From Heptranchias perlo (lineage: Eukaryota), in the NCBI RefSeq assembly GCF_035084215.1, contig NC_090333.1:17360001-17424000 (forward strand): a stretch of 64,000 nt of DNA, written 5' to 3'. Under the pieces are notes generated by a model. The model worked only from the letters and a program-made list of their open reading frames with translations, was not told the origin of the DNA and ran no database searches. This document shows positions 9,401-60,279 of the stretch, piece after piece; positions within the stretch are counted from its first letter, which is position 1; each line of letters starts with the position of its first letter. The position numbers and the translations under genes were made by a program.

Positions 9401-11988
9401 GGCAAAAGAAGTCAGTATTGCACCAGTTGCTCACCATCTTTTTGCTGACTCACTTGGTGAAGGAGAAAATAAGCTTGTAGAAAAACACTGGATGGTAGCA
9501 AGCATGCTGGAGAACCAGTATGAGGATAGCATGTTGCCTGAAAAAAATAACATCCAGCCCACTGGTGGTGGTGACAGTAGACCTCAGGAAAGACCCTGTC
9601 ATTTGCAGCTCTGCCAAAAGGGGCATTCTTCCAATGTACATAGCGACAGCTTTGCAGCAGACGACCTTGATACAAGTGAGCATTTAGCTAACATGGGAAA
9701 AGGTCATGTTCAAGGGTACTACTCAGCATCCAGTGAGCAAACTAATAATACTTTGCCAGCAGGTAATGTATATTGTAATTAACCTTTGATACCAACAGAA
9801 AGCACTTGGTCTACAGTCAGCAGTTAGCTTTTGAGCTGCTGTGCCAAATTGCACAAATGTAGGGGGGAGAAAGGTAAGACCACATCAGTTTAGTTTGTAG
9901 ACCTATGGGAATTTTTAGTTGAAATAACAATGTCAAGGGGGGTTTCAAGGTACAAAAAGTGGGAATATATCTTGTATTGTTAAATGTGAACATTGTACAT
10001 TTTTCCCAGTAAATGTTAGCATGAATACTATGAGAGTTTAGTTATTTCATATCTAATTATACAATGACTTGTTAAAAGTAAAAAAAAATCTGCACTCCAG
10101 AATCTTCTGACCATTTTCTATATATGACTTTAAAGATCATTTAGCCAAAACCATGTATTTGATATATATGTAATATAACTTAATGTGTTAAACCAGATGC
10201 TGGTAAGTGGACCTTCATGGAGGTCTATTGCACGTTGAATCCATGGAGATAGGCATGCAAGATCAAACCAACACACAGCCCTTCAAGCAGTTAGAATGCC
10301 AAAGTATTTAGATTTAGAGGGCTAGTTGCAAAGTGATTTGCAAGCAAGTGTTTTTTCACATTTGTTGATCAGATGAGTGGGGTGTGGTCTCCAGAGATGT
10401 GGGAAAATGTTACTAATCCCATCGATGAGTAAATCTAAACTACATTTGCACTGAAATGTTAATAGTAGCACTTGTATACTGTTCTGTAAATCAAAATAAA
10501 TTAGATTTGAGGTAACTGTCCAGCAGCATAATGTATTGTGGATACTGTACTTGTTTTGTCCAGAATGTAATTTAAAATTATTTGTGCTTGTATTCCTAAT
10601 TTAAATTATGCCAAATGTATTTAAATGATTGTCTAATTGATGGCTCTCTGGTTTAATTAGCAATGACAATTAAGATTCTTACTGTTTTTTGATTGATGAA
10701 TGGTTGATCTTTTAGCTGATTTACTAACCTAATAAACTGCATCGGATTTTCCTGACCTTTTTTATTTTTTTAATTTGTTATATTAGAAAGTGTAACAGTA
10801 TACAGAGCATCAAATCGGACTAAACCGGCACACAGAACATTAACATGTGGTATGCAGCACCTGCAATTAAAATCATGAAAATGAAGGCTTAACTGAATTT
10901 TTTAAAAATGCATTAAATCAGCAAATCACATTTTGATCAATTAGTAGTAGCTGAATCATGAGGGCAATTTTATCCAGGGCTAGCAGTCTGTCCACAGGGA
11001 TTACAGTATTATCCATAAACTATACAATGTCCTCTTACTTTCCCTTTTACTGGAATCAAAGGCTCCAAAATGATCATAGGACAGTGTAATGGGTTTGTCA
11101 AAAATTCCTCTGCTGTTTTAGCAGAGGCATTAATTTTAAACCAGTGAATACCTCTGTTATAGTAAGAGAAGGAATTTCAGAAGAATGTCGAGTATCATAC
11201 GATATTTTCCAACGGTATAATTTCAGTGCCAGTGTTTCTGGGTTAACTAATTGGATTATATTAATACTTTTACTTTGATCATTCCCATTTTTTGCCATGT
11301 ATACTTGTGTTAATTTCATGCTTGTTTGCCTATATTAATTTCTATCCTGCCGCCGCCCTCAAGTCAGTCAGAAACCGGTTTATAATTTAGTGATAGTTAT
11401 CATTGCAATCAGTGTTTTAAAGTTAATCAAATACTCCAAGGTAGTCTGCAGCAGTCCCAATTGAAATACCTACTTATATCAGAATTTTTACAATGTTTAG
11501 TATTATGAATTGTTTCAGGAGACTTAGCTGATAGCGACAGATCGCAAAGCTACACATATGATCGTCGCCCTTCAAAAACCCTTTCTCCCATTTACGAGAT
11601 GGAAATAACGGAAGATATGGACCAGCGCTCAGAGATAGAAGTGAGCCATGCGCATCAGGAAGAAAATGAACACTTTGCAGAAAGAGACTGGATACTTCTT
11701 AAGCAGCTACTGGGAGATCAGGAGCCAAATTATGGGGTTGTTAACTGTCTGCCTGAAGATGTCAACCTAGCACAGTATCTTATCAACCAAACACTTTTCC
11801 TTTCTAGAGATGCTTCTAAGACTTTAGGTAAAATTGCAGTTGAAAAAGAGGCACTGTGTAAATGGACTGAACAACTATCTCCTTTGGAAGACTCTACAGC
11901 TAGCATTACAGTGGCTAGTTTTTCCCCAGAAGAATCTGTGTCCCCGCAGGGGGAATGGACAATTGTAGAACTGGAAACTCATCACTAG
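1..11988 (+). CDS. BTBD8: BTBD8/KIAA1107 (APache, AP2-interacting clathrin-endocytosis protein), 3' portion of a multi-exon gene; 5' end lies outside the window
   Basis: Exons <1-465, 1183-1261, 5603-5742, 7294-9762, 11519-11988 join through GT-AG junctions in one open frame (phases 1,2,1,1). Motifs GSATTSSDDIKP, DYDAGGSQDDDGSNERGISKCST, DFLGRSSSDTSTPEELK and C-terminal SPQGEWTIVELETHH match KIAA1107 as recalled; synteny with C1orf146-GLMN-RPAP2. Confidence 0.9.
1183..1261 (+). CDS. BTBD8: BTBD8 coding exon (79 nt)
   Basis: Pyrimidine tract + CAG acceptor, donor AG|GTGAGT; VSRPTSVIKATKTLSASMKTNRPVTS. Confidence 0.8.
1524..1755. mobile_element. Penelope-like pseudo-LTR-derived insertion forming a perfect 94-bp inverted repeat
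   Basis: Arms 1561-1654 and 1658-1751 are exact reverse complements; flanked by 12-bp direct repeat TCAAATGATTAC (1512-1523, 1756-1767); GATGTGGAGATGCCG/GGACTATAAC..GGTGTTGT motifs resemble shark Penelope termini. Confidence 0.8.
1662..1702 (+). ncRNA. Minimal type I hammerhead ribozyme motif (mirror copy on - strand at 1610-1650)
   Basis: ATTCAC-CTGAGGA-A-GGAGG aag CCTCC-GAAA-GCT-T-GTGAAT: stem I ATTCAC/GTGAAT, CUGANGA core, 5-bp stem II, GAAA, self-complementary AGCU stem III. Confidence 0.65.
2040..3270 (-). mobile_element. Decayed L2-type LINE 3' fragment
   Basis: Minus-strand RT C-terminal remnants (VTSRLNYTHALLVSLPSS, FKSLHGLTPTYLSNLLQPY) with stops/frameshifts; same family as 19400-20160 and 52560-53345. 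Confidence 0.75.
4955..5430 (-). mobile_element. CR1 LINE 3' fragment
   Basis: ALERMQRRFTRMLPG motif and CR1 3' tail. Confidence 0.8.
5603..5742 (+). CDS. BTBD8: BTBD8 coding exon (140 nt)
   Basis: TAG acceptor, AAG|GTACT donor; VPNKQKAQNRDEGMSPAHVKK...QQRAKSAPG; phases fit both neighbours. Confidence 0.75.
6380..6775 (+). mobile_element. LF-SINE-like SINE copy (related copies ~4200-4530, 26460-26850, 34110-34450, 35290-35405, 48360-48710, 48900-49320, 59020-59275)
   Basis: Recurrent core GAGTTAGCTNATCTCAGC...TACAATTGGCCTCAGC...CTAGGGAAGGGAAAA...GCTGGAAAGTG in diverged form on both strands; family assignment from memory of the LF-SINE consensus. Confidence 0.6.
7294..9762 (+). CDS. BTBD8: BTBD8 giant coding exon (2469 nt, KIAA1107 region)
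   Basis: ORF 7311-9782; acceptor TTTTAG at 7293, donor CAG|GTAATG at 9762. Confidence 0.92.
11519..11988 (+). CDS. BTBD8: BTBD8 last coding exon
   Basis: Acceptor TTTCAG; DRRPSKTLSPIYEM...GEWTIVELETHH*; stop TAG ends at 11988. Confidence 0.92.
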
Positions 11989-14750
11989 CATAACCTCTAA
12001 ATTGTGTACATAGGGGTGTAAATATGATCTGGATTCTTTTGTCACAAGGTCCTGACTTTTTCTGTAGCTTAATAACCAGGTCTTATTGAGTCACTATTGG
12101 ATGCAGCAGTATATAATAAACTTACATACTTAACTTTTTTTTGTTATAAAATTGCCATTTGGGGTCCTTTTTTGTAAAGGGTTTTTGTTTAACAGGACGA
12201 CCATTAGGTATGTGTGTCAGCATTTGCTTTATATCTTGAAATGTGGGACTCGGGTTTTCCATATAGAAAAATCTTGTAAATAATTGGTTTATATGCCTAA
12301 AACTAGAAGGCAAACTTTACATTTTCATAATGTAAAATGTTAGTAAACTAAAATCACTTGATTACTACTTTCAAGAACTATACTCATCTTAATAGATCTT
12401 TTTTAAAAACTTCTAAAATTAGGCAGTGATGGAGGTAACTTACAAATCCCCAGGATGTTGGCAATTTCTTACAACTGTTTATTGTACAAACTCTTGTTTT
12501 GGAATCCAAGACAGCTATGGCAATTTGTGCTGATTTTTTTTAACCTTGATTTTTAAATACAGATGTTGGTGTCCATGGGACCAGGATCTAAACTAATTTC
12601 TTTAACTCCCTTTTTGACAAAATAAACTACAGGATACTTGGCAACTTTCTCCTGGCTGTAAAATGTGAATTTGTTAGTGCAATGTGGGAATGTTCTTTTC
12701 ATCATACCTGCTGTGGTAGTAATTTTGGTATATTGAGCTGAATTGACATAAAATAAACTCTTAAAAATACGTGAAGTGCATCCCAGAAAAATTAGCTTCA
12801 CTGGAAAATCTCAATAGTTTTGACTTGTGAAAAACTTTATTTGAGAGACCTTTCTTTAAATGATACTGGCAGCAAATTCAGAGAGCTGGTCAAAATTTTA
12901 TGTCACCTTATCCTTTTTTGACATGTACCAAAATTAATTTCAGAAACTGGATGGAAATTTTAGAAGATGGCCCTTTCAACTGGGGCTTAACTTTAAATCC
13001 AGTTTAGATAGGTGCTATGAAAGTCGTCTTTCCTGTGGCTGTGCAGAATCCACTGAAGTTTGATTTAGAAACCTCCAGCCTCCCCTTAAACGGGATCTAA
13101 CCGGCAGAAATGTAGGCATAGAACCTTATGGAAAGCATTATTGGGGATGTTCTTTGAAATTTCATGGTCTAGCCCCACGATCAGACCAATGTGGGAAAAG
13201 TTGAACTGTAAAATTACCTGACCTGGAAGTGCTTGATGTCCATGTGTGCAGTTAGAAAAACTTTCCCATGTTCCCTGTACTAATTGTTCCTAATTTTGAA
13301 AGGCACATTCTCCCACCTGCATACCAATGCACAAAAGCTAATTTTTCAGCTTTTAAACCCTAATAGGTAGGTTGCTGTTTAGACTTAAATGTGTAAGAGT
13401 AATTGGAGGGAGGCAGCAACATGTAATTAATCAATAAAAAGATCTATTAACAAAGCATTAAAACTGGTTTTGATCATTTTTACTAAATATCGCATTTTTA
13501 CAATAACATGGAAATCTTTTTATGCTGAGTGCCCTTGCTCATACTATGCTGTCATAAAAGAAAATAGTATCCTGCACTAAAAACTAATAGTTATATTGAA
13601 GGTACCTATTTTAAACTTAATCACAATGAAATACATCACCGTCATGGTTTGACTGCAGACATTTTTGTATTTTATCTTATTTCTATATTTTGAAAATAAG
13701 GGAGGAGGTCCATCTGTAAAATTATTCTAATTGTAGATGATTTCAGACATTTCAAATCCGTATAGAAAAGGCTCTTATTTGTATTTAATTTTTTTAAATG
13801 ATCAGCCCCATTCCCTTTTGTGTTGTCATATGGCACATAATTCCCAGGGTGAGCGGTGCAGTCAAGATACTTGTTTCAAGGCTTCTGTCAATCTTTAATC
13901 AATTAAGAAATGTGTGAGTATTGCAGGGTGACTTTCCCCAACTATTTTCCCTCCCAGTGGGGAAATGGTGCTCAGTGTCTCTTCCCAATGGCATTTCTGC
14001 ACCCCTACCAGAGGGGTGGAAAATCCAAGTTGCTGTACCAAATTAGAGAAGCGCCTGCTCCTGGTTACTGTGAAAATACCTGACAATATCATGGTAAACG
14101 TTTGTGCTGCGGGGAACTTTTCAGAAGAAATACAAATTCTGAAATAGAAAGTTAAAAGTGCATTTACTTGAGTTGTGAATTGTAGTGTTACCCAAGGTAT
14201 GGGACTTTTTTTTTCCAGTACAGTAATTGTCTTGTAATAAAGAACTCATATTCTTGAGCACGGGGTTCTACAGAACTGTCAACTTCAGATGATTTCCCTC
14301 AGCAAAAAACTTTTCGGTGAAGGAACTGGAAGTCTCTGCTACGAGGAGGTACTTCAACATACTCCCAGAACAGAAGTTTACTAACAAGCTGATGGGGTTT
14401 GAACCTACTGGAACATCATTTCCTATACAGTTTATAAATACAACCCTGGATCATGTATGTATCATACATGTTAGTTTACAATTATTTCGATTAGTAAATG
14501 AAAGGTGTTCTGGATCCTTGAACAAATTTATCAAATAATTTGGGGGGGAGGTGGAATTCTGTAAAGATTATAACTGAAAATGTAGATGTCGGTCCATTTT
14601 TCATTGCACTAACCGTTAGCATAAACTATAGTCTAAATTAAAAGATGTCAGTGAAAAGTGTATGAGGTGTAATTTATGTTATCTGTTTACTTTTGAGGAT
14701 TGCAGTTCTAACTACTTTTTATTAAATAATAAAACATTGATCCATAAAAG
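11989..14750 (+). other. BTBD8: Probable long BTBD8 3' UTR with several candidate poly(A) signals
   Basis: AT-rich and nearly TE-free; AATAAA at 12752, 13433, 14236, 14728. True 3' end cannot be determined from sequence. Confidence 0.45.
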
Positions 14751-14833
14751 GAATGGTAATATTTCTAATTCCTTGCAACACACATTTGGCGCCAACCCTA
14801 AACTGGAGGAATAAAAAACGCGCGCGCATTCCG

Positions 14834-15175
14834 TGACGTCACAGAAGGAGCATGCTGTCGCGTTGCAGCAGGAGCGTGCCATGACGTCACAGAAGGAGTG
14901 TGCTATAAGCGTTGCAGCTGGAGCGTGCCATGACGTCACAGAAGGAGCGTGCTATAAGCGTTGCAGCTGGAGCGTGCCATGACGTCACAGAAGGAGCGTG
15001 CTATAAGCGTTGCAGCTGGAGCGTGCCATGACGTCACAGAAGGAGCGTGCTATAAGCGTTGCAGCTGGAGCGTGCCATGACGTCACAGAAGGAGCGTGCT
15101 ATAAGCGTTGCAGCTGGAGCGTGCCATGACGTCACAGAAGGAGCGTGCTATAAGCGTTGCAGCTGGAGCGTGCCA
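14834..15175 (+). repeat. 49-bp minisatellite, 7 units, at the SPO16 5' end
   Basis: Unit TGACGTCACAGAAGGAGCGTGCTATAAGCGTTGCAGCTGGAGCGTGCCA starting at 14834, 14882, 14931, 14980, 15029, 15078, 15127; units 3-7 identical, unit 2 has one substitution, unit 1 is 48 bp and diverged. Confidence 0.97.
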
Positions 15176-15219
15176 TGGCGACAGTTGGTGGGGCCGTGAT
15201 CGTCAGCGCCGCCCTTCAG
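15175..15219 (+). CDS. SPO16: SPO16 coding exon 1
   Basis: GCCATGG Kozak; MATVGGAVIVSAALQ resembles human TTIIISSSLK; donor CAG|GTGCGA, phase 0. Confidence 0.8.
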
Positions 15220-18200
15220 GTGCGAGGCGCCGGCACAGTCGTTGGACGGGGCAGGCGGTAGCCATCAGCCGACGGTCCCATTATTAATTAATTGCCCCCG
15301 TTGCTGCTGGCCAATTTCCCGTTGCTACAGGGAGCTTCAATATTTCCATAAAGATCTAACCGGCTCCTGACATGAGTCTGTCTGATGGAACAGTACTGCC
15401 TGTCTGACGGGCGAGGGTTTTAAGCTCTTACTGTGCTCGGGTCCTGGTGTTTCGGAATCTGCCACCTTTCCATTGCCGCGCGAATTGGCAGCAGTTGCTC
15501 GTGTGCAAGAATTTGTTCACAGTTTGCGTTTTGTAGCTGGGACATGGCGAAGGTCCACACAGGCTAAAATGTGGACAACGCGTGCATCAGAGCAGTGAGT
15601 CATAGAGTTATACAGCACGGATAGAGGCCCTTCGGCCCATCGTGTCCGCGCGGGCCATCAAGCCCAGTCTAATCTAATCCCATATTCCAGCATTTGGTCC
15701 GTAGCCTTGTATGCTATGGCATTTCAAGTGCTCATCCAAATGCTTCTTGAATGTTGTGAGGGTTCCTGCCTCCACAACCCTCTCAGGCAGTGAGTTCCAG
15801 ACTCCAACCACCCTCTGGGTGAAAAAGTTCTTTCTCAAATCCCCTCTAAACCTCCCGCCTTTTACCTTGAATCTATGTCCCCTTGTTATAGAACCCTCAA
15901 CAAAGGGAAAAAGCTCCTTAGTATCCATCCTATCTGTGCCCCTCATAATTTTGTACACCTCAATCATGTCCCCCCTCAGCCTCCTCTGCTCCAAAGAAAA
16001 CAGACCCAATCTTCCCAGTCTCTCTTCATAGCTGAAGCGCTCCAGCCCTGGTAACATCCTGGTGAATCTCCTCTGCACCCTCTCCAAAGCGATCACATCC
16101 TTCCTGTAGTGTGGCGACCAGAACTGCACACAGTACTCCAGCTGTGGCCTAACCAGTGTTTTATACAGCTCCATCATAACCTCCTTGCTCTTATGTTCTA
16201 TGCCTCGGCTAATAAAGGCAAGTATCCCATATGCCTTCTTTACCACCTTATCTACCTGTTCCGCCGCCTTCAGGGATCTGTGAACTTGCACACCAAGATC
16301 CCTCTGACCCTCTGTCTTGCCTAGGGTCCTCCCATTCATTGTGTATTCCCTTGCCTTGTTAGTCCCTCCAAAGTGCATCACCTCGCACTTTTCCGGGTTA
16401 AATTCCATTTGCCACTGTTCCGCCCATCTGACCAACCCATCTATATCGTCCTGCAGACTGAGGCTATCCTCCTCGCTATTTACCACCCTACCAATTTTTG
16501 TATCATCAGCGAACTTACTGATCATACTTTTTACATTCATATCCAAGTCATTAATGTAGACCACAAACAGCAAGGGACCCAGCACCGATCCCTGTGGTAC
16601 CCCACTGGCCACAGGCTTCCAGTCACAAAAACAACCTTCGACCATCACCCTCTGCCTTCTGCCACTAAGCCAGTTTTGTATCCAAAGTGCCAAGGCACCC
16701 TGGATTCCATGGGCTCGTACCTTCTTGACCAGTCTCCTGTGGGGGACTTTATCAAAGGCCTTACTGAAATCCATGTATACCACATCCACTGCGTTACCCT
16801 CATCCACACGCCTAGTCACCCCCTCAAAAAATTCAATCAAATTAGTCAGACATGATCTTCCCTTGACAAAGCCATGTTGACTATCCCTGATTAATCCTTG
16901 CTTCTCCAAGTGGAGACTAATTTTGTCCTTCAGAATTTTTTCCAATAATTTTCCTACCTTGGCCTCACATTACAGCATTGTGGGGGCCACTGTCGTCCAC
17001 AGCTCTACAATAAGACTGGGCCAACCCTCCAGGATTGGCCTGGAGCCTCCAGCAATTAGAGGTTCATCCCCAGGACGCTGCTGCGAGCAACCCAGGGGAA
17101 AAAAAATCATAGGGGCATTTTAAAAAAATGTTTTTTTTTTTTGAACGTTAGTTATAAAAATATCAGGGATGGGGAAAAAAGACTGTTTAACTGACAGTCA
17201 AGTTAAGCTTTTACAGGGTGTTCTAGTTCCGTTTTTTCAGCCGTGCTTATGAGAGAATTGGAATTATTCAACAAGGCAAAGCTACCTTTTTCTAGTTTCC
17301 TGTAATGTAACAGATATTTTGAATGAACCATTTTATTCCTTTCCACATGGTCCTCAGTTTTGAAGTGTATCTTTCAGCATAAAATGGAATGATGTACAAA
17401 TTTAATACAGATCTGCACAACAATGTATTTTTGGTATACTCAGTCATGTAGTTTTCTGCACAGTTTTAGTTTATTGCACAATGCTAATCGAATAATTTTG
17501 TACAGATGTCTGAAATTATTTTGCACTATTATAACAGCAAACTTAAAAATATTGTTAAAATTTAAATTTGGAGTGTTCATTCATATTTAGTTATTCCACC
17601 AGAGAATAGGTGAATTATTTTGTTTTTCACTCCTTACAGTATTCAGTATTTTGCTTTTCACTTTTTTTCCAGCGTCATGAAGCCATTTCTTCTTTGTCCA
17701 GTCAGCATCAGCGAATTAGGTTCTCTGACTCTGTGGTAACTGGATCAATCATTTTCCCACTTTCTGGTACAATTAATTAAACTGTAGTAGTTTATTGTAT
17801 AATAGTTCTGGTTCTACAACAAATATGTTGGCAGTTCCTGTTAGAAAATACAACATCCACACACCATTGTGGTGTAGCATTCATTACATGGTGTGATAGT
17901 CTCACAATTAGATCTATTTTTTCCCTATCGCTATGATTTTGCCATTTTCATCCGCTTTACAAGAATAGTATCATATGCACAGCTTCCTGCAATTATCTGA
18001 AATGGCAGGAGTGTCTTTAATTACCCAAGTACAGATTGTGGTACAGTTCATTCTATCGTTCCTGCAGACCATACTATTAGTCGTAAATTTTAATCCCTAA
18101 TGCATATGGATAAAAATGGCATTTGTTAATGTCCTGATTAAAAATATCAATTATTGGCTGCACTCTAATATTCAAAATAATGTACAAGTGCAAAATAAAA

Positions 18201-21200
18201 TATCTGTAAATAAAAGATTAATGGAGCTGAGTAGGTGCCTGTTGACTTTTATCACATGGTAGCTAGTGTGGAGGGTTTTTCAACCGGTATGTATGATGCA
18301 TGAAATAGAAAATCTGCAGTCCACCTTGGAGTGTTGCAACTCAAAAAGGACATCTGCAGTGGAGCCTCCCTTTGAGTTCATGTATGAGCCACTATTGTGT
18401 AGGGCTGCATACATCTAATTGATTAACACCCTGGATTTAGGGAAATCCTGCTCTTTGGAGCAATTTTCTGCTGTTGTCTTTTACCCATAATGAATGTGAT
18501 GTAATTGCTTTCTCTTGCAAACAACATATCAGTCACCTGCTGAGTGCATCTGTGCATTGCAGACTGACCAGTATTACTAATGTTCCCACTGCCAGCCTGG
18601 AAAGAGCCCAAGACAAAAAGATTCAGGGCTGCAATGACCTTCATAGTCACTGGCAGGATCATGCCTGCCCTGGAATGTCTAGAGGTTATCTTGAAGCAGG
18701 TGGGACAAGTCTGTCACCACCTCCCTGCTGAATTTCAGTCTCTGCATGTATTTCTCCTTCAGTCAAATCCAAATAATTGCACTGTGGCTGATGGGTACGA
18801 TCGGCAGGGTGGGAACTCTCCAGCAATATAGCTATGCTTCTCATCCTTTTGTTCTTCCTCTAAATAACACACATACATGGGGGTTTTCAAAGTGATCCCT
18901 ATTCTGTGAAGGAGTGCAATGGAAGAAGCAAAACGTAACCCCAAAGAAGACCCACAAAGTTCACCAGAATTGCAAGAAAAGCAGACTGTCACTCCTAACT
19001 TGCTGAAATGTAATTTAAATATCACTTGCTGGTTGCTGGCTGCCACTTTAACCAACAGATAAACGGGTTACCTAACAACTGAGTGCCAATTTTATGGCAT
19101 CATTAAGAACCAATGTGGTGCTATGGCTAAAAAACCCAGCATAATTACATTGTTGTTACTGCATCATTTTATAATGATGTTCCCTATACCTGCCTGCCAG
19201 AAATGCACAAAATGGGTGGACAGCTGGCGTCATAGGTCTCCACTCCCCATGAACTGGCACACACCAAATGTAATGGACCCAAATCCTGGCCTCAATCTAT
19301 TTTATTCTGAGAAACTGTCCAGTCAGAAGAGCAGGAGGGATATGCTATAACCTCCCGTTAAATACTGGGAAGATGAAAGTCATCTGTACCCTTGCCTCTG
19401 AATCCATCCCTGTCCCTATCCACTGTCTAATGCTGAACCAGACGGTACACAAACATGGTGTCCCACCTGAGAGATCCTGACCTGACCTTCTGACCCCATA
19501 TTCACCACAGACTGCTTTCTTCCACCTCTGTAACATTGTCTGCTTCTGTCCCTACCTCAGCCCACCTTCCACTGAAGCCTTCATTCCTGCCTTTCATATT
19601 TCCAGACCCGATTACTCCAATACTGTCCTGGCTGGCCTCTCATGTGCCACCTTCCATAAACTTCAGCTTATCCTAATCTGCTGCACATTATCTCTCCTGC
19701 AACAAGTCCCGTTCGCGCATCATAACTACCCTCACTGATCTGCATTGGCTTCTGGTCCCCCAAGGCCTCTGATTTAAAATTCTCATCATTGTGTCTAAGT
19801 CCCACCATGGCCTCACCCCTTCCCTATCTCTGTAACCTTCTCCAGTGCTATAAACCTTCCTTCCCCCACCCTCCAAAATCTGTTCCTCTGACTCTGGCCT
19901 CTTGTGCATCTCCTCCCTTTGTTCACCAACCCATTGGCAACCATGACTTCAACCACCTTGGTCCCACCCTCTGGAATTCCCTCCCTAAACCCTTCTGCCT
20001 CTCCATCTCTGTCTCCTCCTTTAAGACTCTCCTTAAAGCCCATCTTTTCGACCAAGTTTTTGGTCTCCGCTTCTTCTTTTGCTTGGCGTTTGTTTTTCCT
20101 CATGCCACTGTGAAATGCCTTAGGATATTTTTCTATGTTACAGGCGTTACATAAATGCAGATTAAGGAATGATCCATTATGTGTAGGAGGATTGATATGA
20201 AGAAATGGTGGGAAAATGCATGTGATATTTTTTCACCTTGATCCCTTTCTCCCAAAAATAATTGATGCGAGTGCCAGAACCAACTACATAGAAGTTACAA
20301 CACTGAAACATGCCAGTCACACAAGCAAATAGTGCTAATTACACTTAACCACCCTGTTCCCAAATCTCTTTTCCTTCATCCACCTATACAATCTAATCTT
20401 GAATGTTGACAGTTTATGCCTCAACCACTAACCCCGGAAGTGAATTCCACCACAAATCTCATGACAAAACATTCCAGTCTTTGTGGAACACAAGATTACA
20501 ACTGATGCTGTGTATAGTTATGAGAAACAACTGAAAAGGGCAGTCTTACTAATCACTTCCTTCTCTAGCCCCTTCTACCCCTGGCAAAGCACTCTTGGAC
20601 ATTCATTCATGTGGTAGGTGCTCTTTAAGTACAACTGTTAGGGAAGATCACATTTATTGTTGATGAAATCACAAATGGACAGCCACTCTTCCAATTTTTG
20701 GGTTGTAATGCTGACTATGGCATATTGTATATAACCAAATACAAAATAAATATTTAGAATCGTACATTTAAATGTCTCAGCTGATGTTACTTCCGTTTAA
20801 CAAGAAAATTAGGAATTCAGGCAAATAATCCATAAGCATTGTTCAATTATTATTCTTCTTCACAATGATCTACCAGGTTCTTGCAAAACATTTTCCATGA
20901 TTCACCATGACAATTTTTTTTCATTTTTGGAAACATTGGGGTTTTGTTATTAAGTAACTGTATTTGTATTTTCTCAGGTGTTGCCTTTATTATAATGGAG
21001 ATTCAAGATTTCTGTGACAATTCTGCAGAAACAAAGCTGATAGAGCGGATTGAGCAGTTTGTCCGTATTCATCGAAACAGTTTCCTGCTTTTGGCTGCAG
21101 CTCTCTATGGTCCCAAAGAATGGGATGTACTATTCAAAATTCAGCAAAGGTACTTGATGTGGAATAGAAAGGTATGGTGATAGGGTTAAAGGAGGCTCGT

Positions 21201-21847
21201 ATGGAGCATAAACGCTGCCATAGACAAGTTGGGCCGAATGGCCTGTTTCTGTGCTGTAGTTTCAATGTAACTCAGTGTAACCTGTTGCTGCAAGTAACTT
21301 ATTATTCTCTCTCTTTTATTTCACTTGGCTAACACCAAGGCAACCATAATTAGCTATAGCATTGCAGATTTTTTTTTCAGATTTCTAGGTAATAATCTGA
21401 AGATCATACCTGTACACAATGCTGGTGATATGGTCAAGAGTATGCTCACCATAGCCAAGGTAAGTGTACCTCTTAACATCTGAGATTTCATAACACTTTG
21501 AGTATTGCATGTTGATCTTACACATGAACTAATATAAGGCAGCTACAGTATAGTATTTTTACTCATGATGAATGTATTGTTAGCACATTGATTTAGTAAT
21601 ATTAAGAATGGCGTTTTAATTTCTATAAATATCTGCTAAATATTTACTGATGAGAATATCTACAGTAATGTTGGTCATTTTATGTTACATAAATAGTCAA
21701 TGATTCAAATACTCATTCCTTATGAAGGTTACATGTAAACCACATGTGGACAGCGTTCGTGATCGCATCGCCATGATCCGAGCTCAGATTATAGAACGTA
21801 GTCCGGTCTGGGAGATGCTTCACAAGCGGCAGCTAAATGATGCATAA
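15175..21847 (+). CDS. SPO16: SPO16 homolog / C1orf146 (SCRE), meiotic synaptonemal complex/crossover factor, 169 aa
   Basis: Exons 15175-15219, 17673-17766, 20978-21149, 21381-21459, 21728-21847 (510 nt). MATVGGAVIVSAALQ-RHEAISSLSSQHQRIRFSDSVVTGSIIFPLSG-VAFII...IHRNSFLLLAAALYGPKEW...IQQRFLGNNLKIIPVHN...TIAK-VTCKPHVD...IIERSPVWEML aligns with recalled human C1orf146; syntenic; AATAAA at 21988. Confidence 0.9.
15597..16957 (-). mobile_element. Young 5'-truncated CR1 LINE with uninterrupted RT C-terminal ORF in SPO16 intron 1
   Basis: ORF 15674-16945 (423 aa): [43 protein letters not shown]; CR1 3' tail near 15600. Confidence 0.93.
17673..17766 (+). CDS. SPO16: SPO16 coding exon 2
   Basis: TTTTCCAG acceptor; RIRFSDSVVTGSIIFPLSG. 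Confidence 0.9.
18300..19360 (-). mobile_element. Decayed PIF/Harbinger transposase relic
   Basis: ORF 18423-18662 LPVTMKVIAALNLFVLGSFQAGSGNISNTGQSAMHRCTQQVTDMLF resembles the Harbinger transposase HTH region and the copy at 43760-43900; boundaries approximate. Confidence 0.65.
19400..20160 (+). mobile_element. L2-type LINE 3' fragment
   Basis: PTLWNSLP...SFKTLLKAHLFDQ motif and ATAAATGCA tail. Confidence 0.75.
20978..21149 (+). CDS. SPO16: SPO16 coding exon 3
   Basis: VAFIIME...FVRIHRNSFLLLAAALYGPKEWDVLFKIQQR. Confidence 0.92.
21381..21459 (+). CDS. SPO16: SPO16 coding exon 4
   Basis: FLGNNLKIIPVHNAGDMVKSMLTIAK; AAG|GTAAGT donor. Confidence 0.92.
21728..21847 (+). CDS. SPO16: SPO16 last coding exon
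   Basis: VTCKPHVDSVRDRIAMIRAQIIERSPVWEMLHKRQLNDA*. Confidence 0.9.
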   Translation, partial: VTCKPHVDSVRDRIAMIRAQIIERSPVWEMLHKRQLNDA

Positions 21848-27500: not shown

Positions 27501-30500
27501 TACAGAAGTTGTCAGTAAGCCAAAGAAATGCGAGACTGGCTTCTTTAGGTGGTCATGCAATCAACAGAAAATCGCAGAACTGACTGATTTAATTTGCAGT
27601 TACACTACTATTGTGTCACTATGAAACAAAGTGTGAGTATTGTGTCCAATTCTGGGGACCGCACTTTAGGGAGGATGTGAAGGCCTTAGAGAAGGTGCAG
27701 AAAAGATTTACTAGAATGGTACCAGGGATGAGGGACTTCAGTTTTGTGGATAGACTGGAAAAGCTGGGATTGTTCTCCTTAGAGCAGAGAAGGTTGAGAG
27801 GAGATTTGATAGTGGTGTTCAAAATGATGAAGGGTCTAGACAAAGTAAATAAAGAAAAACTGTTCCCACTGGCAGACGGGTCACGAACCAGAGGGCACAG
27901 GTTTAAGGTGATTGGCAAAAGAACCAAAGGCGACATGAGGAAAAACTTCTTTACGCAGCGAACATACAAAATAAGAGTGGGAGTAGGCCATTCGGCCCCT
28001 TGAGCCTGCTCTGCCATTTGAGAAGATCATGGCTGATCTGATTGTGACCTCAACCCTACTTTCCCGTCTACCTACTATAACCTTTGACTCCCTTGTTAAT
28101 CAGGAATCTATCTAACTCAGCCTTAAAAATATTCAATGACCCTGCTCCACCGCTCTCTGGGGAAGGGAGTTCCACAGACACACGACCCTCTGAGAGAAAA
28201 AATTTCTTCTCATCTCCGTCTTAAATGGGAGACCCCTTATTTTTAATCTGTGGCCCCTAGTTCTAGTCTCTCCCACAGATGGAAACATCCCCTCAGCATC
28301 TACCCCTTCTAGTCCCCAGAGTGGTTAGGATCTGGAATGCACTGCCTGAAAGGGTGGCAGAAGCAGGGTCAATTGTGGCTTTCAAAAAGGAATTAGATAG
28401 GTACCTGAAGGAGAAAAATTTGCAGGGCTATGGGGAAAGAGCGGGGGAGTCGGACTAGCTGGATTGCTCTTGCAGAGAGCCGGTGCAGGCTCAATGGGTC
28501 AAATGGCCTCCTTCTGTGCTGTAACCACTCTATGATTCTTTGTATGAAGGCTAAATGTAAGTGCACACTCCATAATGATAGAAGACTTTGATTATCTCAA
28601 TAAAAACATAATAAAGTTAAGAACTGTACTTAAAATTCATTTCAAATTTGACTAAATGTAATTTTTTTCAAATCAACAATTTAGCAAAAAAGAGTTGTTT
28701 TTTAGATAAATCGCACAATTAGATTCACAATACACTGAGTTCTCTGAAGAATAATTCCTTTGCTTGTACTTCATAAATTAGGAGTGGCAAATGTTTCAGA
28801 ATAACTGACCCAAAAGGTAGCCATGGCTATTGCTAGTGACATCTATAAAAGCATGCCAGCACTGTCCAATCATTTAAAACACATGCAGGTATATGCCTAT
28901 ACATACACAGGAAAACTTAACAATTCTATGCTTAGTAACATGCTTACCTTCAATGCTAGATCAATCTGATTTTTAATATTTTGTATAATGTAACCTTGTA
29001 CCCCAGCATGATGGCTTGTCTTTAAGAGACACCTAAAAAAAAATATAAACAGTATAAAATATAAAAACAGTGAAATTGTTCCAGTCACATGAAGCTAACT
29101 TGCCTCATTTATTTCTTCCCCTACTTGCACATGTTGTGGAATAGCTTTAAAAACGACCCACTGTTGTTGTTCTGTTAAAACACTGAGACTATAGCAAAGT
29201 TAACAAAGTTACCATAAACAGATGTAACATGTTAGTATAACCTCAGAGTTCAAAAGATTCCGTACCATATCAATGAGCCTTAAACAGAATTAGTGTAAAT
29301 CCCTTAGTCTACTATTATAGTTCAATAACTTTGAGATTGTTGAACTGTACAGCGTAAAACGCAGCAGGCAAGACTCGAGTTACACAAAAGGCTGTGTCTG
29401 CTATGAATTACATTCCGCTTGCCCTGAAGCTATTTTTAATGTTAAGACAGAGTGGGGAGCAGAATTCACTTTCTTGTAACAGTAAATATTCTACATTGAG
29501 CTTGTAAAGCATCCAGAAGGATCCAGTATCCTAAACCAAGCCTTACATCACACCGAAGACACCACAGAGAGGCTGTCCTCCAGGAGGGTGTTTTACACTT
29601 CTTGGCTTTAGTGTGTTCCAGTGTCAGATTAGCATTTGACACTGGCATTATGGTCATCTTCACATCAATCCATGCCTGAAATTGTTTTGCATCAATATGA
29701 AAGTTGCAGCCTTAGTATAATTACTGGTCATCTTGATCAAACTCCTGAAATTGTGAATTCCTCTTTTTGTGCAACTTTTAAGTGTGGTCTATTTGTGATG
29801 GAAAAAGACACTTTATTCTCTTGTTTAAATTCTATTTGTTAGCACAATGTTTTAGGATTGTTTAAAAATTGAACTGTTCTAGTACAATTTTGTACAAAAA
29901 TAATTTTGGATTGCAAAAGAAAATCTTAAAGAAACAGTACTTTAAAAAAGGAAAAAGCCCATTGAATGTTACTGAATAACTTAGTGATTTTAAAATACAT
30001 GTAGAATATAATTTGACAAAAATATTTACATTAAAATATTGCTACGAATTAAGATAAAAAAATTTCAAAATATATTTTATTTCATAGAATTTAAAGATAC
30101 ACACAGTTCAATGTAAATATCACAATTCAAACCGAAAACACTACAGATCGCACACAAAGCGATTTCATTATTACAATTCAAACACAGTATTTCTTATGAC
30201 TCATGGTGTACAATACAAGGTGGAGTGGCCTTTCTCCATAGAGCTTTGCGTAGGTCGCACCTCGCCTCATTGCGTCCCGCAGCACGTACTCCTGGACCTT
30301 GCAGTATGCCAGTCAGCAATACTCGGTCACGGACAACTCCTACAGCTGGAAGACCAGCAGGTTTCGAGCGGACCAAAGGGCCTCTTTCACCGAGTTGATG
30401 GTCTTCCAGGCGCAGGTGATATCTGTTTCAGTGTGCGTCCCAGGGAACAGCCCGTAGAGCACAGCCTGTGTTACCAAACTGTTTGGGATGAACCAGGACA

Positions 30501-33500
30501 GATACCAACACATCTCTCTCCACACCCTCTGCGCAAAAGGGCAGCCCATCAGGGGGTGGACGACGGTTTCCTCCCTGCCACAGCCTCATGGGCAGCTCGC
30601 AGTGGTGCTGAGGTCCCGTGCGTGTTGGAAGGACCGCACTGGAAGGGCCTTTCTCATCACCATCCAGGCTACATCCTGTTGGTCAGTTCCGGCGACGAGA
30701 CGTTCTGCCAAATGGCATCGACCGTCAGGTCAGGGAAGAAACCGATAGAGTCCACCCTCTCCGATCGTTGCAGGACTCAGAACGTTTCATGTCGACTAGT
30801 GTCTGACGGCTCGAGGTCGAAGGGGTTCCTCCTCAGGAACTTCTCCACCTGGGACAGGAGGGGTGGGAGGGGTGGGGGGGCAGTCCAGCTGGACAGGACA
30901 TCCTGCGCCTGCTCGGCCAGACCCAGCCTTCTCAGTGTGTTGGACTGGTAGAAATGCAGCATGTAGTGACACTTGGTGTTTGCGTACTGGGGCTGCTCTA
31001 CACACATCCTGATGCAGCCACACACAAAGGTGGCCGTCAGGATCAGAGCGGCATTGGGGACGCTCTTCCCCCCCCCTTTGTCTGGGGGCTTGTACATGGT
31101 GGCCCTGTGGACAAGTTCTACCTTGGACTTCCAGACAAAGTGGAAGATAGCTCAGGTGACTGTGACGGCTGAGTTGTGGGGAATGGGCCAGACACTGGCC
31201 ACGTAGAGCAACACCGCGAGTACCTCACACCTTATCACCAGGTTCCTGCCGGTTACGGAGAGGGATCGCCCCAACCACATCCCAAGCTGCTGTTTGGCCT
31301 TGGCGATCCGCTCCTCCCAGTTCTTTGTGCAGGCCAGGGGCCCCCCAAACCAGATCTCTAGCACCCTCAGGTAGTCGGACCTGATGGTGAAGGGAATAAG
31401 GGACCGGGTCCCCCAACTGCCAAAGAACATGGCCTCGCTTTTACTTCAGTTCACTCTGGCCCGAGGCCAGCTCGAAACGATCGCAGATACCCATCAGTGT
31501 GTGGACCGACTGCTGATTGGAGCAGAAGATGGTGACGTCGTCCACGTACAGGGAGGCCTTAACCTGAGAGCCTCCGCTGCCTGGGATCATCACCCTCGAT
31601 ACCTGCGTCCTTCCTGATGGACACAGCAAATGGCTCGATACAACATACGAACAAGATTGCAGGGAGGACAGCCCTGCCTGACTCCAGATCTGATCGGAAA
31701 GCTGTCTGACTCCCACCCGTTGATTGGGACTGCGCTACGGATATCCGCATAGAGCAGTTGGATCCAATCGCGGATTCCCTCCCCAAAACCCATTTTGGAG
31801 AGTATGTCCATCATGTATGTGTGGGATATTCTGTCAAAGGCCTTCTCCTGGTCCAGGCTGATGAGGAAGGTGTTCACCCCTCTGTCCTGCACATAGGCGA
31901 TCGTATCCCTGAGCAGCATAAGGCTATCAGAGATCTTCCTACCAGGTACAGTACAGGTCTGATCCGGGTGGATCACCTGCTCCAGAGCAGACATGAGCCT
32001 GTTGGCGATGGCCTTAGACAGAATCTTGTAGTTGACATTTAGCAAGGAAATGGGTCGCCAATTTCTGATTTCTTCCCTCTCCCCCTTCCGCTTGTAGATG
32101 AGGGTGATGATGCCTTTCCTCATGGACTCTGACAAGCTGCCTGCCAGAGGCATACCCCCGGTACACTTCCAACAGGTCTGGGCCTATCCAGTCCCACGGG
32201 GCCGAGTACAACTTGACAAAAGGAGAAATACCTCCATTGACAGGACTTCCAATAAGACAATCAATATTCAAGTCAAGTGTCTATGGGATCACTATTAGGT
32301 CAATATGTATGCAGAGCAAGCAACAATCTAAAACCCTCTGACCCATTCCATTAGCATTATCAACTAGATTACATAATTAAATCCAAAGAGAAACTGTAAT
32401 TGTAAAGCAGTAACAGCGCACAGCAACAGTTACACTAAGCTTTATTTAAATAACTCAAAAAAGACCATAATTGTATATATTGCAAAAAAACGGATCCATA
32501 GTTTGTTACAAAATAGAACACAATTTCAGGGCTCAGATGACTGCATAGAAAATGTATGGTTTAGCTCAGTAACTGAACACCAAGACAGTGACTTAAAGTC
32601 CTTCTGCTTTCTGTAACTGGCAGAACTTACAAAGTATTTTAGTACTGCGCTGTAAAGTACCAAAAGCTGCTGGGTTCAAACCACACCAGAATTTCAGCAC
32701 ATAATTCAGGTTAACATTTTTTAAAGGATGTTATATGAATGGAAGTTTGTAATTTCTTTCTTATCAAAATAGCTTTTTACCACTTAAAAAGTATGCTGCA
32801 AAATACAGTAATAGTTATGCAGTGTTATTAATCTAATAAAGCTAAAAAGCCGTTATAGCTCTTGTGTTCTCTGCAATGGATATTGATAATACCTTGAATA
32901 TTTTTATATTTGATAAAGGGTATATTAAGTTGAATTTACTGTTATTTTTATTCCAATTAGACATGTCTGCCTGGCTTATAAGCAGTTTTTTGCATGTCCT
33001 AACTTATTGTACATAAACAGGTTCCACTTAACATTTTAATATCTATTCAGAAAAACTAGCAGAAGTCAAAATCTTTAAAATTAATACCTTATAAAATAAA
33101 TGCCTTCTAGACATTACTCACCTAAATAATTTGTGTTTTGCTTCTGGATCAAACTTGTCAATGTACTGCTGAAATATCTTTAGGCTCCATTTCCGCTAAA
33201 ACAGTGAAAAGACAATTAAATCTAATAAAGCATTCCATGTTCTTTAGATAGAAGTCATTTCATATAATTGCATTAATACATACCAAATGCTCAATAGGAC
33301 AGAGAGTCATCACCTTCACTAAATCCTAGAGTCAGAAATTTGAGAAATAACCCATTAAAATGGTAGCCAGAAGTACACATTATAATCTAAGTTATAATTG
33401 CTAGGTTTTTTTAATGTTGCTGTAAATTAAAGCATGGGCCACATATACATTTGCTTTATGCTTGAGTTGTGGATTACCTGTGGAATGCTGAGAATGTTCT

Positions 33501-39500: not shown

Positions 39501-42500
39501 TCCTACTTCAACTATGGGAAGGATATAGAGGAGCAAATTTGCAGGGAAATTACAGAGAGGTGCAAGAACATTGAGTAGTGATAATGAGGGACTTCAACTA
39601 CCCTAATATAGACTGGGACAGTAATAGTGTAAACGGCAAAGAAGGGAAAGAATTTCTGAAGTGTGTTCAGGAGAACTTTCTTGATCAGTATGTTTCCAGA
39701 CCAACAAGGAAGGAGGCATTGCTGGATTTGGTTCTGGGGAATGAGGTGGGTCAAGTGGAGCAAGTGTCAGTGAGGGGGAACATTTAGGGAACAGTGATCA
39801 TAGTATCATAAGGTTTAGATTAGCTATGGAAAAGGACACAGGGTAATCTAGAGTAAAAATACTTAATTGGAGGAGGGCCAATTCAGTGGGTTCAGAACAG
39901 ATCTGGCCCGAGTAAATTGGATTCAAAGATTGGCAGGCAAAACTGTAATAGAACAATGTGTGGCCTTTAAAGAAGATATGGTTCGGGTACAGTCTAGATA
40001 CATTCCCACGAGGGGGATAGGTAGGACAACCAAAGTCAGACTTCCCTGGATGACGAAAGAGATAAAGAGCAAGATGAAGCAGAAAAAGGGGGCGTTTGAC
40101 AGATGTCAGGTTATTAATACAAGTGAGAACCAGGCTGAGTATAGAAAGTTCAGAGGAGAAGTAAAAAAGGAAATAAGCGGGCCAAAGAAAAAGTATGAGA
40201 ATAGACTGGCAGCTAACATAAAAGGGAATCCAAACATCTTCCACAGGTGTATAAATAGTAAACGGGTTGTAAGAGAAGGGGTGGGGCCGATTAGAGACCA
40301 AAAAGGAGATCTACTCATGGAGGCAGAGGGCATGGCTGAGGTACTAAATGAGTACTTTGCATCTGTCTTTACCAAGGAAGAAGATACGGCCAAAGCCACA
40401 GTAAAAGAGGAGGTAGTTGAGATACTGTGTGGGATAAAAATTGATAAAGAGGTACTAGAAAGGCTGGCTATACTTAAAATAGATAAGTCAGCAGGTCTGG
40501 ATGGGATGCATCCTAGGTTGCTGAGGGAAGAAAGGGTGGAAATTGCAGAAGTATTGGCCACAATCTTCCAGTCCTCCTTAGACACGGGGTGGTGCCGGAG
40601 GACTGGAGAATTGCAAATGTTACACCCTTGTTCAAAAAAAATGTAAAGATAAACTCAGCAACTACAGGCCAGTCAGTTTAACCTTGGTGGTGGGAAAGCT
40701 TTTAGAAACAATAATCGGGACAAGTGTGCATTAATAAGGGAAAGCCAGCACGGGTTTGTTAAAGGCAAATCGTGCTTGACTAACTTGATTGAGTTTTTTG
40801 ATGAGGTAACAGAGAGGGTTGATGAGGGCAATTGGTTGATGTTGTGTATATGGACTTTCAAAAGGCGTTTGATAAAGTGCCACATAATAGGCTTGTCAAT
40901 AAAATTGAAGCCCACGAAATAAAAGGGGCAGTGGCAAGGTGGATATGAAATTGGCTAAGTAATAGGAAACAGAGGGTAGTGGTGAACGGCTGTTTTTCAG
41001 ACCGGAGGAAGATATGCCACGGTGTTCCCCAGGGGTCGGTACTGGGATCACTGTTTTTTTTGATATATATTAATGACTTGGACTTGGGTGTACAGGGCAC
41101 AAGTTCAAAATTTGAGCTAACACAAAACTTGAAAGTGTAGTGAACAGTGAGGAGGATAGTGATAGACTGCAAGAGGACATAGACAGGCTGGTGGAATGGG
41201 CGGACACGTGCCAGATGAAATTTAACGCTGAGAATATGAAGTCTTACATTTTGGTAGGAAGAACGAGGAGAGGCAATATAAACTAAAGGGTATGCAGGAA
41301 CAAAGAGACCTGGGGGTATACGTACACAGGTCGTTGAAGGTGGCAGGACAGGTTGAGAAAGCGGTTAAGAAAGCATACGGAATCCTGGGCTTTATAAATA
41401 GAGTCATAGGGCCCGATATTAGGAGGGAGGCGGGTTCTCAGCAGGGGGTGGGGGGGGGTCGACTGGGCGCGTGGGTAACGCGCCCGGTGAAATCAGTGTG
41501 CTCCGCAGGCTGATTGGAGCCACTTACCCGTGCTTCCGGGTTTCGCGCTGGAAAGCTGCACGGCGGGCGGACTGCGCACGCGCAGCAAAGTCTGTCAGCT
41601 GGAGGAGCCCTATTTAAAGGGGCAGTCCACCAATGCGCCTCCTGCAGCAAACAACCAATTCTGAACCATGGAGCAGGCCAGAGGGAAGGCTGCCCCAGGA
41701 TTTTCGGACTCCTCACTCCAGGTGCTGCTGGATGGGGTGAGGAGGAGGAGGGAAATCCTTTTCCCATCCGATGGGAGGAAGTGCCCTCCCTCCACCACGA
41801 AGAAGGCCTGGCTGGAGGTGGCCGAGGAGGTCACCAGCAGCGGCAATGTGCCAAGAACCTGGGTCCAGAGCAGGAAGAGATTTAATGACCTAACCAGGTC
41901 AGCCAAAGTGAGTATACTTACGCATTCTCGCACACACTGTCTTCCACATCACCTCCACCACCACACAACCCCTTCTGCACTGCCACCACAATGCTCTCGC
42001 ATCGCTCCTCACATCCACTCAACTATCATCCTCACCTTGCCTACACGTACTCACCACCCCTGTCTCCATTTGAACACTACCACGCAACCCAATCCTCATA
42101 CAATATCATGGCTTTGTTGCACACGCACCCTCCCATGCACCTCCCTCACGCTCAACCCCACCCACACCAATGCATGCAGCGGGTCACCATGCAACCATCA
42201 CTCAATCATGCCTCTGTGTTTTGCCTTGATAGGAGATGAGATGCCAGAACGCCCGGAAGAGGGCACAGACCAGAGGGGGCCCGCCACACCAGGTGGCACT
42301 AACAGACGCAGAGCAGCAGGCATTGGAGATCAGCCGCACGCTGGAATGCCTGTCCGTGGCGGATGCTGAGGCTGGGATTGCACAAGCGGCTGGTGACAGA
42401 AAGCTAACACTCAGCACTCATGATAGCAAATGATCTTAGCATCACTTGGCATCTGCAGCACCTCAACATCTGTCCACATGCCTAATATTGCTTTCTGTTC

Positions 42501-58810: not shown

Positions 58811-60279
58811 ATAGTCTTTTCTCTAATAAGCTACCATTTAAATTGCCAGATTCTCATAAACAATGCTTAGAGAAGCATAGAAACCTTATTTTAATCAAAA
58901 CTATTTGCTGCACAGTGTCTCCTTATGGTATACAAAATAGTGCCAGATGCCCTCCAGTATCTTGCCCAAGTAGCTATTATTCATGTGTGAGCCTTTGACT
59001 ATATCATCAAATTATTTGACCATGGAGACATGAACCTGAGCCATTGTTGTCTCACCCAGTATCTACAAGTACACATTTACAGCAGGGATTGCTGGATAGA
59101 AATTGGGAACAGGAACTCTGGTCAATTTCCCGTCTATAACTTGGGGTGCTAAGGTTATTTGTAGTTTACTGACAATCGCCTCAATAACAACAGCTTGCAG
59201 GTATCAGCACAGAGCAGGGATAAAACCTGGAAGCTTCCTGGTTTGTGTGGCTCAGTTACTCACTAGATAAATTTCCTGAACTGTTGGAGGATTTTTTTTC
59301 CCCTGTTGGATTCTTTGAGTCACATGCTGTTGCTTTTCCTTCAATTTTAGATCCATGTTTGTCTTACTCCTTGCCCCCGAAACACTTTTTTAAATGCTTG
59401 GATTTTCAAATGGGAAGAAGGAGGAGAAGAGCTCCAGGCTAAATTGAGGGCGAGAGGGAGAAGTGCCAGGTTGAATTAGGAGGGTTGGAGTGTCTCTGTG
59501 AAAGGGTGGGCAATTAGATGGGGTACAGTGTCTCTAAAATGGGGCCAGCGGAGGTAAAGTGCCTCTGTGAACTGGGCTGCGGGAGTGATGGTTGAGGTAA
59601 CTTCTGGGGAAGTGATAGTCTGGGGTTAGTCTGTTAAAAATCCAAATGTCACTTTGTTTTTCCTTTTTTCAGATTAAGAAGCTATCAACTGTAAAGTATG
59701 AAAGTTCTTAAAATTAACTTGAATGCATAATTTCAATGTAATAATTCAACATTTTTGGTGGAACCTGCCCCCAGACCCACCCTAGAAATGCACCAATAAA
59801 TTTGCACCATCAAGATTTGGATTTTCCCCTTCAGGCTTTCATCTATTTACACTTGTTTTTCCTCTGCTACAAGTGAAGCAATATTGGGCTATACCTGCAG
59901 CTTAGGTTACAAAACCAATGTAACTATTTCTTTTCACAAGTCATAGGCTTATATTAAGCAGGGCTGCTCTGGGGCTTTCAGCTTTTTAGGGGCTGTGTCA
60001 GCTTTTGTTCTAGATCAGCACATATGTAACAACAGAAAAGGCTGATGAAAAATTCCACGGTAAACATTAACCTATCTTTTCTCTTTCAGACGTTGACTGA
60101 TCTTTCTGTTATTTTTCAGCATTTGTTAAAAAAAAATAAAGTCGCAACTCCAAGCAACATATTACTTGTTTAAAATTTAAAATAAAAAAACACGAATTTT
60201 AGTATTAAATAATTCATTAAATGCAGCAATGGATGACAAGAGACATACTGAAGGGGAATAAATGGTACCATTTCCACCT

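Follow-up and report, generated by a model that had tools for sequence, protein, structure and literature searches.

A seven-unit, CRE-containing tandem repeat that ends on the start codon of SPO16 in the shark Heptranchias perlo

The window analyzed here, a stretch of 64,000 nucleotides from Heptranchias perlo (contig NC_090333.1, forward-strand positions 17,360,001 to 17,424,000; positions below count from its first letter), contains the SPO16 gene on the plus strand. Its five coding exons (15175–15219, 17673–17766, 20978–21149, 21381–21459, and 21728–21847, the last with the stop codon) are separated by GT-AG introns and encode an intact open reading frame (ORF) of 169 aa. The assignment of this gene to SPO16 in the initial annotation was borne out: four of the five exons matched PF15162 (SCRE; SPO16/C1orf146) above the cut-off, with E values of 4.6e-10, 7.2e-23, 1.6e-10, and 1.4e-13 for exons 2 through 5, respectively, the 15-codon exon 1 giving no match, and the product is identical to RefSeq XP_067845758.1 of the same species. 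The initiator at 15175 has the context -3 G / +4 G, the exon 1 donor follows position 15219, and the next in-frame ATG downstream would give a protein of only 117 aa. From exon 2 onward, 115 of 150 residues are identical to the Callorhinchus protein (103–113 for 12 other elasmobranchs); decay of the protein on the Heptranchias branch was rejected on this basis, as the sequence is not fast-evolving, with the reservation that an intact protein is uninformative on a very recent loss of expression. Upstream, the plus strand carries a C-terminal BTBD8 match (BTBD8_C); downstream, the minus strand has two glomulin-family matches, both below the cut-off in a Pfam scan of 122 frames that included 117 of the 174 minus-strand ORFs. 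This order fits that of the human genes, BTBD8-C1orf146-GLMN.

Some details of the gene model were recorded separately. The last SPO16 intron ends in AAG (21725–21727) rather than CAG or TAG, and this junction is backed by the identity to the RefSeq protein. Near the N terminus (15184–15192) there is one extra residue compared with most sharks, located at a TGG-TGG DNA repeat where a 3-nt slip could explain it. Bony-vertebrate SPO16 proteins carry ∼7–8 extra residues before the conserved hydrophobic block, with an offset of 14–15 in 71 of the 83 matching records (109 examined). The first residues of the Callorhinchus SPO16 model (P0026) resemble the end of a long BTBD8-like exon (window 9690–9782), which suggests a read-through or chimeric prediction; a short stretch of the same model is, in addition, duplicated internally ahead of exon 2.

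A tandem array occupies positions 14834–15177 on the plus strand, and its last bases are the SPO16 ATG. Tandem Repeats Finder, applied to the 64-kb window, gave a period of 49, 7.0 copies, and 97% matches for the array, and the remaining four of its five rows have at most 2.5 copies each. The copies are arranged head to tail and the unit falls within the ∼10–100 bp range of minisatellites. Comparison of the seven 48/49-bp units revealed that divergence across the array is polar, with units 1 and 2 variant and units 3–7 identical. Unit 1 (14834–14881, 48 bp) is the most diverged (44 of 49 columns equal to the consensus); it has the CRE, lacks TATAA and CAGCTG, and contains an extra ATG at 14852 that opens a 10-codon ORF. 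Unit 2 (14882–14930) matches the consensus except for one CpG-to-TpG change, and units 3–7 (14931–15175) each carry the CRE, TATAAG, CAGCTG, four CpGs, and the upstream context of the initiator. TATAA and CAGCTG are thus confined to units 2–7, and the CRE is present in seven of seven. Junctions 1–6 read GCC-ATG-A; at the seventh, the SPO16 initiator itself, the sequence is GCC-ATG-G. In all of these respects, namely ∼49-bp units running into the SPO16 ORF, a CRE in every unit, TATAA and CAGCTG in units 2–7, four CpGs per identical unit, and GCC-ATG junctions of which the last (GCCATGG) is the initiator, the array is as initially annotated. The recent expansion claimed at the same time agrees with the identity of units 3–7, on which it rests. 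A search for dispersed copies of the unit within the 64-kb window gave no match better than E 0.2 outside the array. The array is seen in one haplotype of one assembly, and there is no N anywhere in the window. One CpG of the consensus is altered in both unit 1 (14852), to CpA, and unit 2 (14899), to TpG, changes on opposite strands that methyl-CpG deamination would give, and the CpG of the CRE is intact in seven of seven units. Seven codons upstream of the ATG are open before a stop is reached (15154–15195); given the ∼7–8 extra residues of bony-vertebrate SPO16, the last part of unit 7 may formerly have belonged to the coding sequence.

The array and exon 1 are surrounded by a CpG island (14780–15700). 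The CpG observed/expected ratio is 1.01 in the array and 0.35 in the whole window, and the island persists without the array (0.88 in 15178–15500). CpG counts per 200 bp are 0–3 from 11900 to 14699 and then 11, 16, 19, 9, and 11, placing the array in the sole CpG-rich stretch between BTBD8 and SPO16 intron 1. None of the 19 YAG sites in 14600–15175 has more than 9 of 15 pyrimidines, compared to 11–14 at the four real acceptors. Because the CpG-rich stretch occurs only at the array and no good acceptor is present, a promoter at the ATG exon is favored. The array thus very probably amplifies the core promoter/5′ leader, in keeping with the original proposal. Mouse Spo16 is described as having six exons with its ATG in exon 2 (PMC6357729), so that an upstream exon is possible in the shark. 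Among other cartilaginous fishes, the N termini of the electric-ray (Narcine) models P0009 and P0024 are compatible with translation of the SPO16 leader and first codons in a shifted frame, beginning at an ATG ∼80 nt upstream, so that a second elasmobranch may have an upstream ORF that overlaps the gene. No full CRE is encodable in those 80 nt if the stretch is contiguous, and the sawfish N terminus is compatible with seven of the eight CRE bases, at a position that is not fixed. An AATAAA at 14810–14815, 19 nt before unit 1, is the last of seven AATAAA copies that follow the BTBD8 stop codon (11988); the BTBD8 3′ end would reach unit 1 if it were used, although the region is AT-rich and the hexamer may be due to chance.

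The array had been thought to supply the SPO16 start codon, but the comparison with orthologues reverses this relationship. The initiator is shared in that 13 of 25 chondrichthyan records, representing 13 of 21 species and including sharks and three batoids, begin with MAT; these N termini are gene predictions, and the other 12 records begin otherwise. Judged from these proteins, the start codon predates the array, and the array copied the initiator. The manner of copying can be read in the second half of the internal unit (half B), whose first 13 nt are the initiator segment 15165–15177 and whose last 13 nt are the 5′ CRE segment. The two crossover ends of the array are equal at 11 of 16 positions in an ungapped alignment counted by eye. 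The sequence thus strongly indicates an origin in which the CRE at 14834 and the sequence resembling it around the start codon were joined, through slippage or unequal exchange, at a TG present in both. A crossover at that TG would explain why the initiator's upstream 11 bases, TG, and the rest of the CRE follow one another at each internal junction. One copy would then have gained a base and been amplified to yield the five identical units. In our interpretation, the proximal promoter/5′ leader of SPO16 was recently amplified in tandem within a single shark lineage, where "recent" and "lineage-specific" are suggested by unit identity alone.

Within the 64-kb window the CRE (TGACGTCA) occurs at seven sites, all of them inside the array, compared to a mean of 0.25 in 100 shuffles. 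Since seven motif copies represent one event, chance was assessed with the array collapsed to one unit (∼400 nt per version, 5000 dinucleotide shuffles). The single-unit CRE arose in 7 and 16 of the 5000 shuffles, which is beyond chance for a motif that was picked post hoc. The corresponding P values were 0.45 for TATAA, which occurs 180 times across the window, and a weak 0.07 for CAGCTG. The TATA consensus is TATAWAWR; the word in the array, TATAAGCG (TATAA then GCG), departs from it, there are 0 matches to TATAWAWR in 14550–15330, and TATAA itself is absent from unit 1. A canonical TATA box and a meaningful E-box were rejected, as the TATA-like and E-box words are not beyond chance; within the leading reading developed below, both words are incidental. 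E2F-like (14785), NRF1-half, and Inr words and MYB-like words (15182, 15298, and 15319, and also 14571 and 14613) are not claimed, with P values of 0.05–0.37 in the single-unit versions; for the E2F-like and NRF1-half-like words of the 5′ flank these were 0.15 and 0.36, respectively. The first CRE (14833–14842) is a 10-bp palindrome, the only such copy in the window, and forms the center of a 36-bp imperfect palindrome (14820–14855) in which 9 of 14 pairs outside the 8-mer match, a value reached by 1 of the 285 other 8-bp palindromes in the window. No stable DNA hairpin was predicted at this quasi-palindrome or in the units (z of -0.11 to +1.80 for five of five stretches).

Sites of the CRE type are reported to be enriched in proximal promoters and CpG islands (PMC3464117), and their methylation is reported to inhibit binding of CREB1, ATF4, and JUN (PMC3668366), which for CREB1 agrees with the earlier statement that CpG methylation blocks CREB binding. 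The suggestion of CREM as a regulator fared less well. Mouse CREM-tau is reported to begin at pachytene and peak in round spermatids (PMC10454534), later than the SPO16 foci, which extend from leptotene to early pachytene, and the gene is also expressed in fetal ovary (PMC6357729), making CREM-tau an awkward fit. In the main text of a meiotic-promoter paper (PMC13083884), CREB, ATF1, and Spo16 have 0 occurrences.

The six internal junctions place ATGs at 14881, 14930, 14979, 15028, 15077, and 15126 (spanning 14881–15128, plus strand), all in the moderate context -3 G / +4 A. The ORFs from the first four have 33 codons each and end within the array, and those from 15077 and 15126 run into SPO16 in another reading frame; all of the stops are 337–582 nt before the last exon junction. 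An N-terminal extension of SPO16 from a junction ATG was rejected, as both in-frame candidates (14881 and 15028) meet a stop within the array. In human, the high-impact class is described as comprising upstream ATGs whose context is moderate or strong and whose ORFs overlap the coding sequence out of frame (PMC7253449), and two of the six junction ATGs overlap in this manner. A transcript starting before the array would include the six junction ATGs and ATG 14852, and the sole interval in which a transcription start gives SPO16 mRNA free of upstream ATGs is 15127–15174, the presumptive productive start zone. The favored TATA-to-start spacing is given as 29–32 bp, including 31 bp (PMC1779604). 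Starts 31 bp past the TATAA words would lie at 14935, 14984, 15033, 15082, 15131, and 15180; the first five leave 4, 3, 2, 1, and 0 upstream ATGs, respectively, and the last is past the ATG, so one of six (15131) is productive. Each of the six TATAA words has a pyrimidine-purine dinucleotide 31 bp downstream, and such dinucleotides are common. No stable RNA structure was predicted for three of three leaders (z of 0.05 to -0.98). Junction ATGs had been listed in the initial annotation without their consequence, which is that extra units add decoy ATGs and so work against a simple model of more copies, more protein.

Our leading reading, to which we give moderate confidence, is that a CpG-island core promoter was duplicated by accident in the recent past and that the array is tolerated because productive starts lie in the last unit. 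The island would be unmethylated in germ cells, and CREB1/ATF1-type factors could bind up to seven CREs. Transcription starts would be dispersed, with those in unit 7 yielding SPO16 from the old, strong-context ATG, and those farther upstream would carry 1–7 upstream ATGs, be poorly translated, and likely be substrates of nonsense-mediated decay. As extra CREs and extra decoy ATGs would oppose each other, we expect a modest net change that is tolerated, and not a dial shaped by evolution. The distance of the CRE from the ATG, 48 bp, leaves a very short leader and counts against this reading.

Other arrangements of the same elements were weighed. One of them, the view of the initial annotation and similar to TRIB3, has a focused start in unit 7 with the CREs of units 1–6 clustered upstream of it; output would rise with copy number, and CpG methylation would shut the gene off in soma. 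The seven intact CREs, a single one of which is already beyond chance, fit such a tunable activator, as do the TRIB3 reporters and cohorts in which expression is reported to increase with repeat number (PMC7425993), the sensitivity of CREB1 to methylation, and the pyrimidine-purine start at 15131, at the favored 31 bp from the unit-6 TATAA and just past the last decoy ATG. The same spacing, however, occurs at all six TATAA words, where four starts incur 1–4 upstream ATGs and the one at 15180 misses the ATG, TATAAG is non-canonical and not beyond chance, and the timing of CREM-tau is late; we consider this arrangement unlikely. Slightly more doubtful is one in which starts stayed in the 5′ flank (14780–14840), making the array a 340-nt leader with seven upstream ATGs that lowers SPO16 protein according to copy number, as a hypomorphic or buffered allele. 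That flank is CpG-rich (6 CpG in 54 nt) with E2F-like and NRF1-half-like words, two junction ORFs overlap the coding sequence out of frame, and the Narcine models hint that such leaders may be tolerated. Opposing this, the flank words are not beyond chance, the leader structure is ordinary (z 0.05), and loss of Spo16 is reported to sterilize mice of both sexes (PMC6357729), yet the shark protein is without decay.

The array would be largely irrelevant if, as in the mouse, a separate upstream non-coding exon existed, leaving the repeat intronic or spliced past. Several chondrichthyan models do have alternative first segments, and the position of the mouse ATG in exon 2 provides a precedent. The absence of a CpG-rich stretch in 11900–14699 and the weak pyrimidine content of all 19 YAG sites before the ATG make this arrangement improbable. 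It is less probable still that the true locus has one or two units and that the array is an assembly artefact, a concern raised by the five identical units; the array is just 344 bp long, it includes two distinct variant units, the window has no N, and the reference is described as a chromosome-level Vertebrate Genomes Project assembly, hap1 (PMC13109646; bioRxiv 10.1101/2025.02.26.637739).

A fainter and older layer of repetition was found beneath the 49-bp period. The unit consists of two degenerate halves, A and B, of 24/25 nt (lag-24/25 identity of 0.41 and 0.37), whose similarity was reached by 0 of 20000 shuffles, and the TATAA of half A occupies the position of CATGA in half B. Two old degenerate 24-mers at 14823–14870, S1 (14823–14846) and S2 (14847–14870), resemble each other and the initiator segment S3 (15165–15188). 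S1 and S2 match at 15 of 24 positions (7 of 20000 shuffles and 4 of 6674 control stretches), and the S2-S3 and S1-S3 similarities were reached by 29 and 37 of 20000 shuffles, respectively. Aligned to SPO16 -10..+36, the unit phased as A plus B agrees in 34 of 50 columns (0 of 5000 shuffles), or in 23 of 37 columns without the shared head (26 of 5000). The CRE plus flank agrees with codons 7–11 in 11 of 12 columns (for S1, 211 of 5000 shuffles and 9 of 1858 controls); the CRE is one base short of codons 7–11, or two substitutions from TG plus codons 2–3. All of these half-unit registers were chosen by eye after inspection. An unbiased self-repeat score was equaled in 1 and 3 of 1500 shuffles, but also in 4 of 159 real CpG-rich windows, and the tails after the ATG alone gave P values of 0.01–0.09. 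A local match of S2 or half A to the post-ATG part of exon 1 was rejected, as there was no signal (5000 and 4483 of 5000 shuffles), and upstream of 14823 a further degenerate 24-mer was sought in eight registers, with at most 9 of 24 positions matching. Three origins are conceivable for the CRE: a long-standing promoter site, an exon copy that has decayed, or the result of a fold-back event. In its most ambitious form, the half-unit layer leads to a promoter built from copies of the gene's own start, in which a decayed duplicate of -10..+36 gave rise to a de novo CRE that was amplified, and in which the array is now a self-limiting copy-number dial (one CRE and one decoy ATG per unit) that is variable among individuals and adjusts how much of a crossover protein is made; we regard this as quite unlikely.

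Promoter repeats that multiply a transcription factor site are already well known, and what is unusual here is that the unit includes the gene's initiator. The 33-bp promoter VNTR of TRIB3, as described in PMC7425993, consists of tandem copies of one promoter segment with a bZIP site over the start-site region, and the shark array, which probably lies in such a region, would work in a similar way. The TRIB3 site is of the C/EBP-ATF type, whereas that of the shark array is a palindromic CRE, a predicted site that is beyond chance for a motif picked post hoc (7 and 16 of 5000 shuffles). TRIB3 has 1–5 copies with proven polymorphism, a single copy conserved in other mammals, and reporter evidence, whereas the shark array is known from one sequence alone. 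The TRIB3 unit is not described, in the part of that source available, as carrying the initiator, whereas the shark unit ends on an ATG and makes upstream ATGs. The 28-bp 5′ UTR VNTR of TYMS (PMC3320636) resembles the array as a GC-rich repeat right before a start codon with a variant unit, and a title cited there ties a SNP in its unit to USF-1 binding. The TYMS start codon is 13 bp downstream of the repeat and not described as part of it, whereas the shark ATG forms the last bases of the array and was copied into each junction. Copy number at promoter VNTRs such as MAOA and EIF3H may, according to a review (PMC12776774), alter binding-site density and local methylation, as is conceivable for the array; the main text of that review contains the term "start codon" 0 times. 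Repression by upstream and overlapping ORFs (PMC7253449) similarly involves moderate-context upstream ATGs near the coding sequence with out-of-frame overlap; there the ATGs are described as arising from single variants, whereas the shark ladder arose from tandem duplication of a true initiator. Among the matches listed, judged by titles and the starts of abstracts, no report of a repeat at SPO16 or of a repeat copying an initiator was apparent. Natural repeated CREs near a start site exist in the 21-bp HTLV-1 and 19-bp CMV viral enhancer repeats. Unlike the shark unit, these are viral, selected, spaced, and upstream of a canonical TATA, with no coding start in the unit.

With such a unit, any gain in transcription and any loss in translation would both depend on one copy number, in that activator sites and upstream ATGs scale together. 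If the array varies among individuals and alters SPO16 dose, it would represent a natural cis-acting variant of a crossover gene and offer a clean test of start-site choice rescuing a gene from upstream ATGs. The predicted pattern is a 49-nt ladder of 5′ ends of which one rung is productive. Weighing against its importance, the array is a single locus, seen in one assembly of a deep-water species difficult to study, and it may be neutral.

The remainder of the window includes several additional features. A LINE-like reverse transcriptase ORF of 366 aa (PF00078; 15677–16774, minus strand), presumably CR1-like, lies in SPO16 intron 1 ∼450 bp after exon 1, and another reverse transcriptase element is found at 30088–32183 on the minus strand (PF00078 at 31593–32183). 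A second CpG island (60250–60800), which has neither a CRE nor a tandem repeat, probably serves as a promoter common to glomulin and the gene beyond it; by gene order the latter would be RPAP2, Pfam having given no match. A GC-rich block at 41500–44500 contains a Myb/SANT ORF (PF13873) and a 33-bp tandem repeat (42925–43006), and we take it to resemble a PIF/Harbinger transposon in a glomulin intron.
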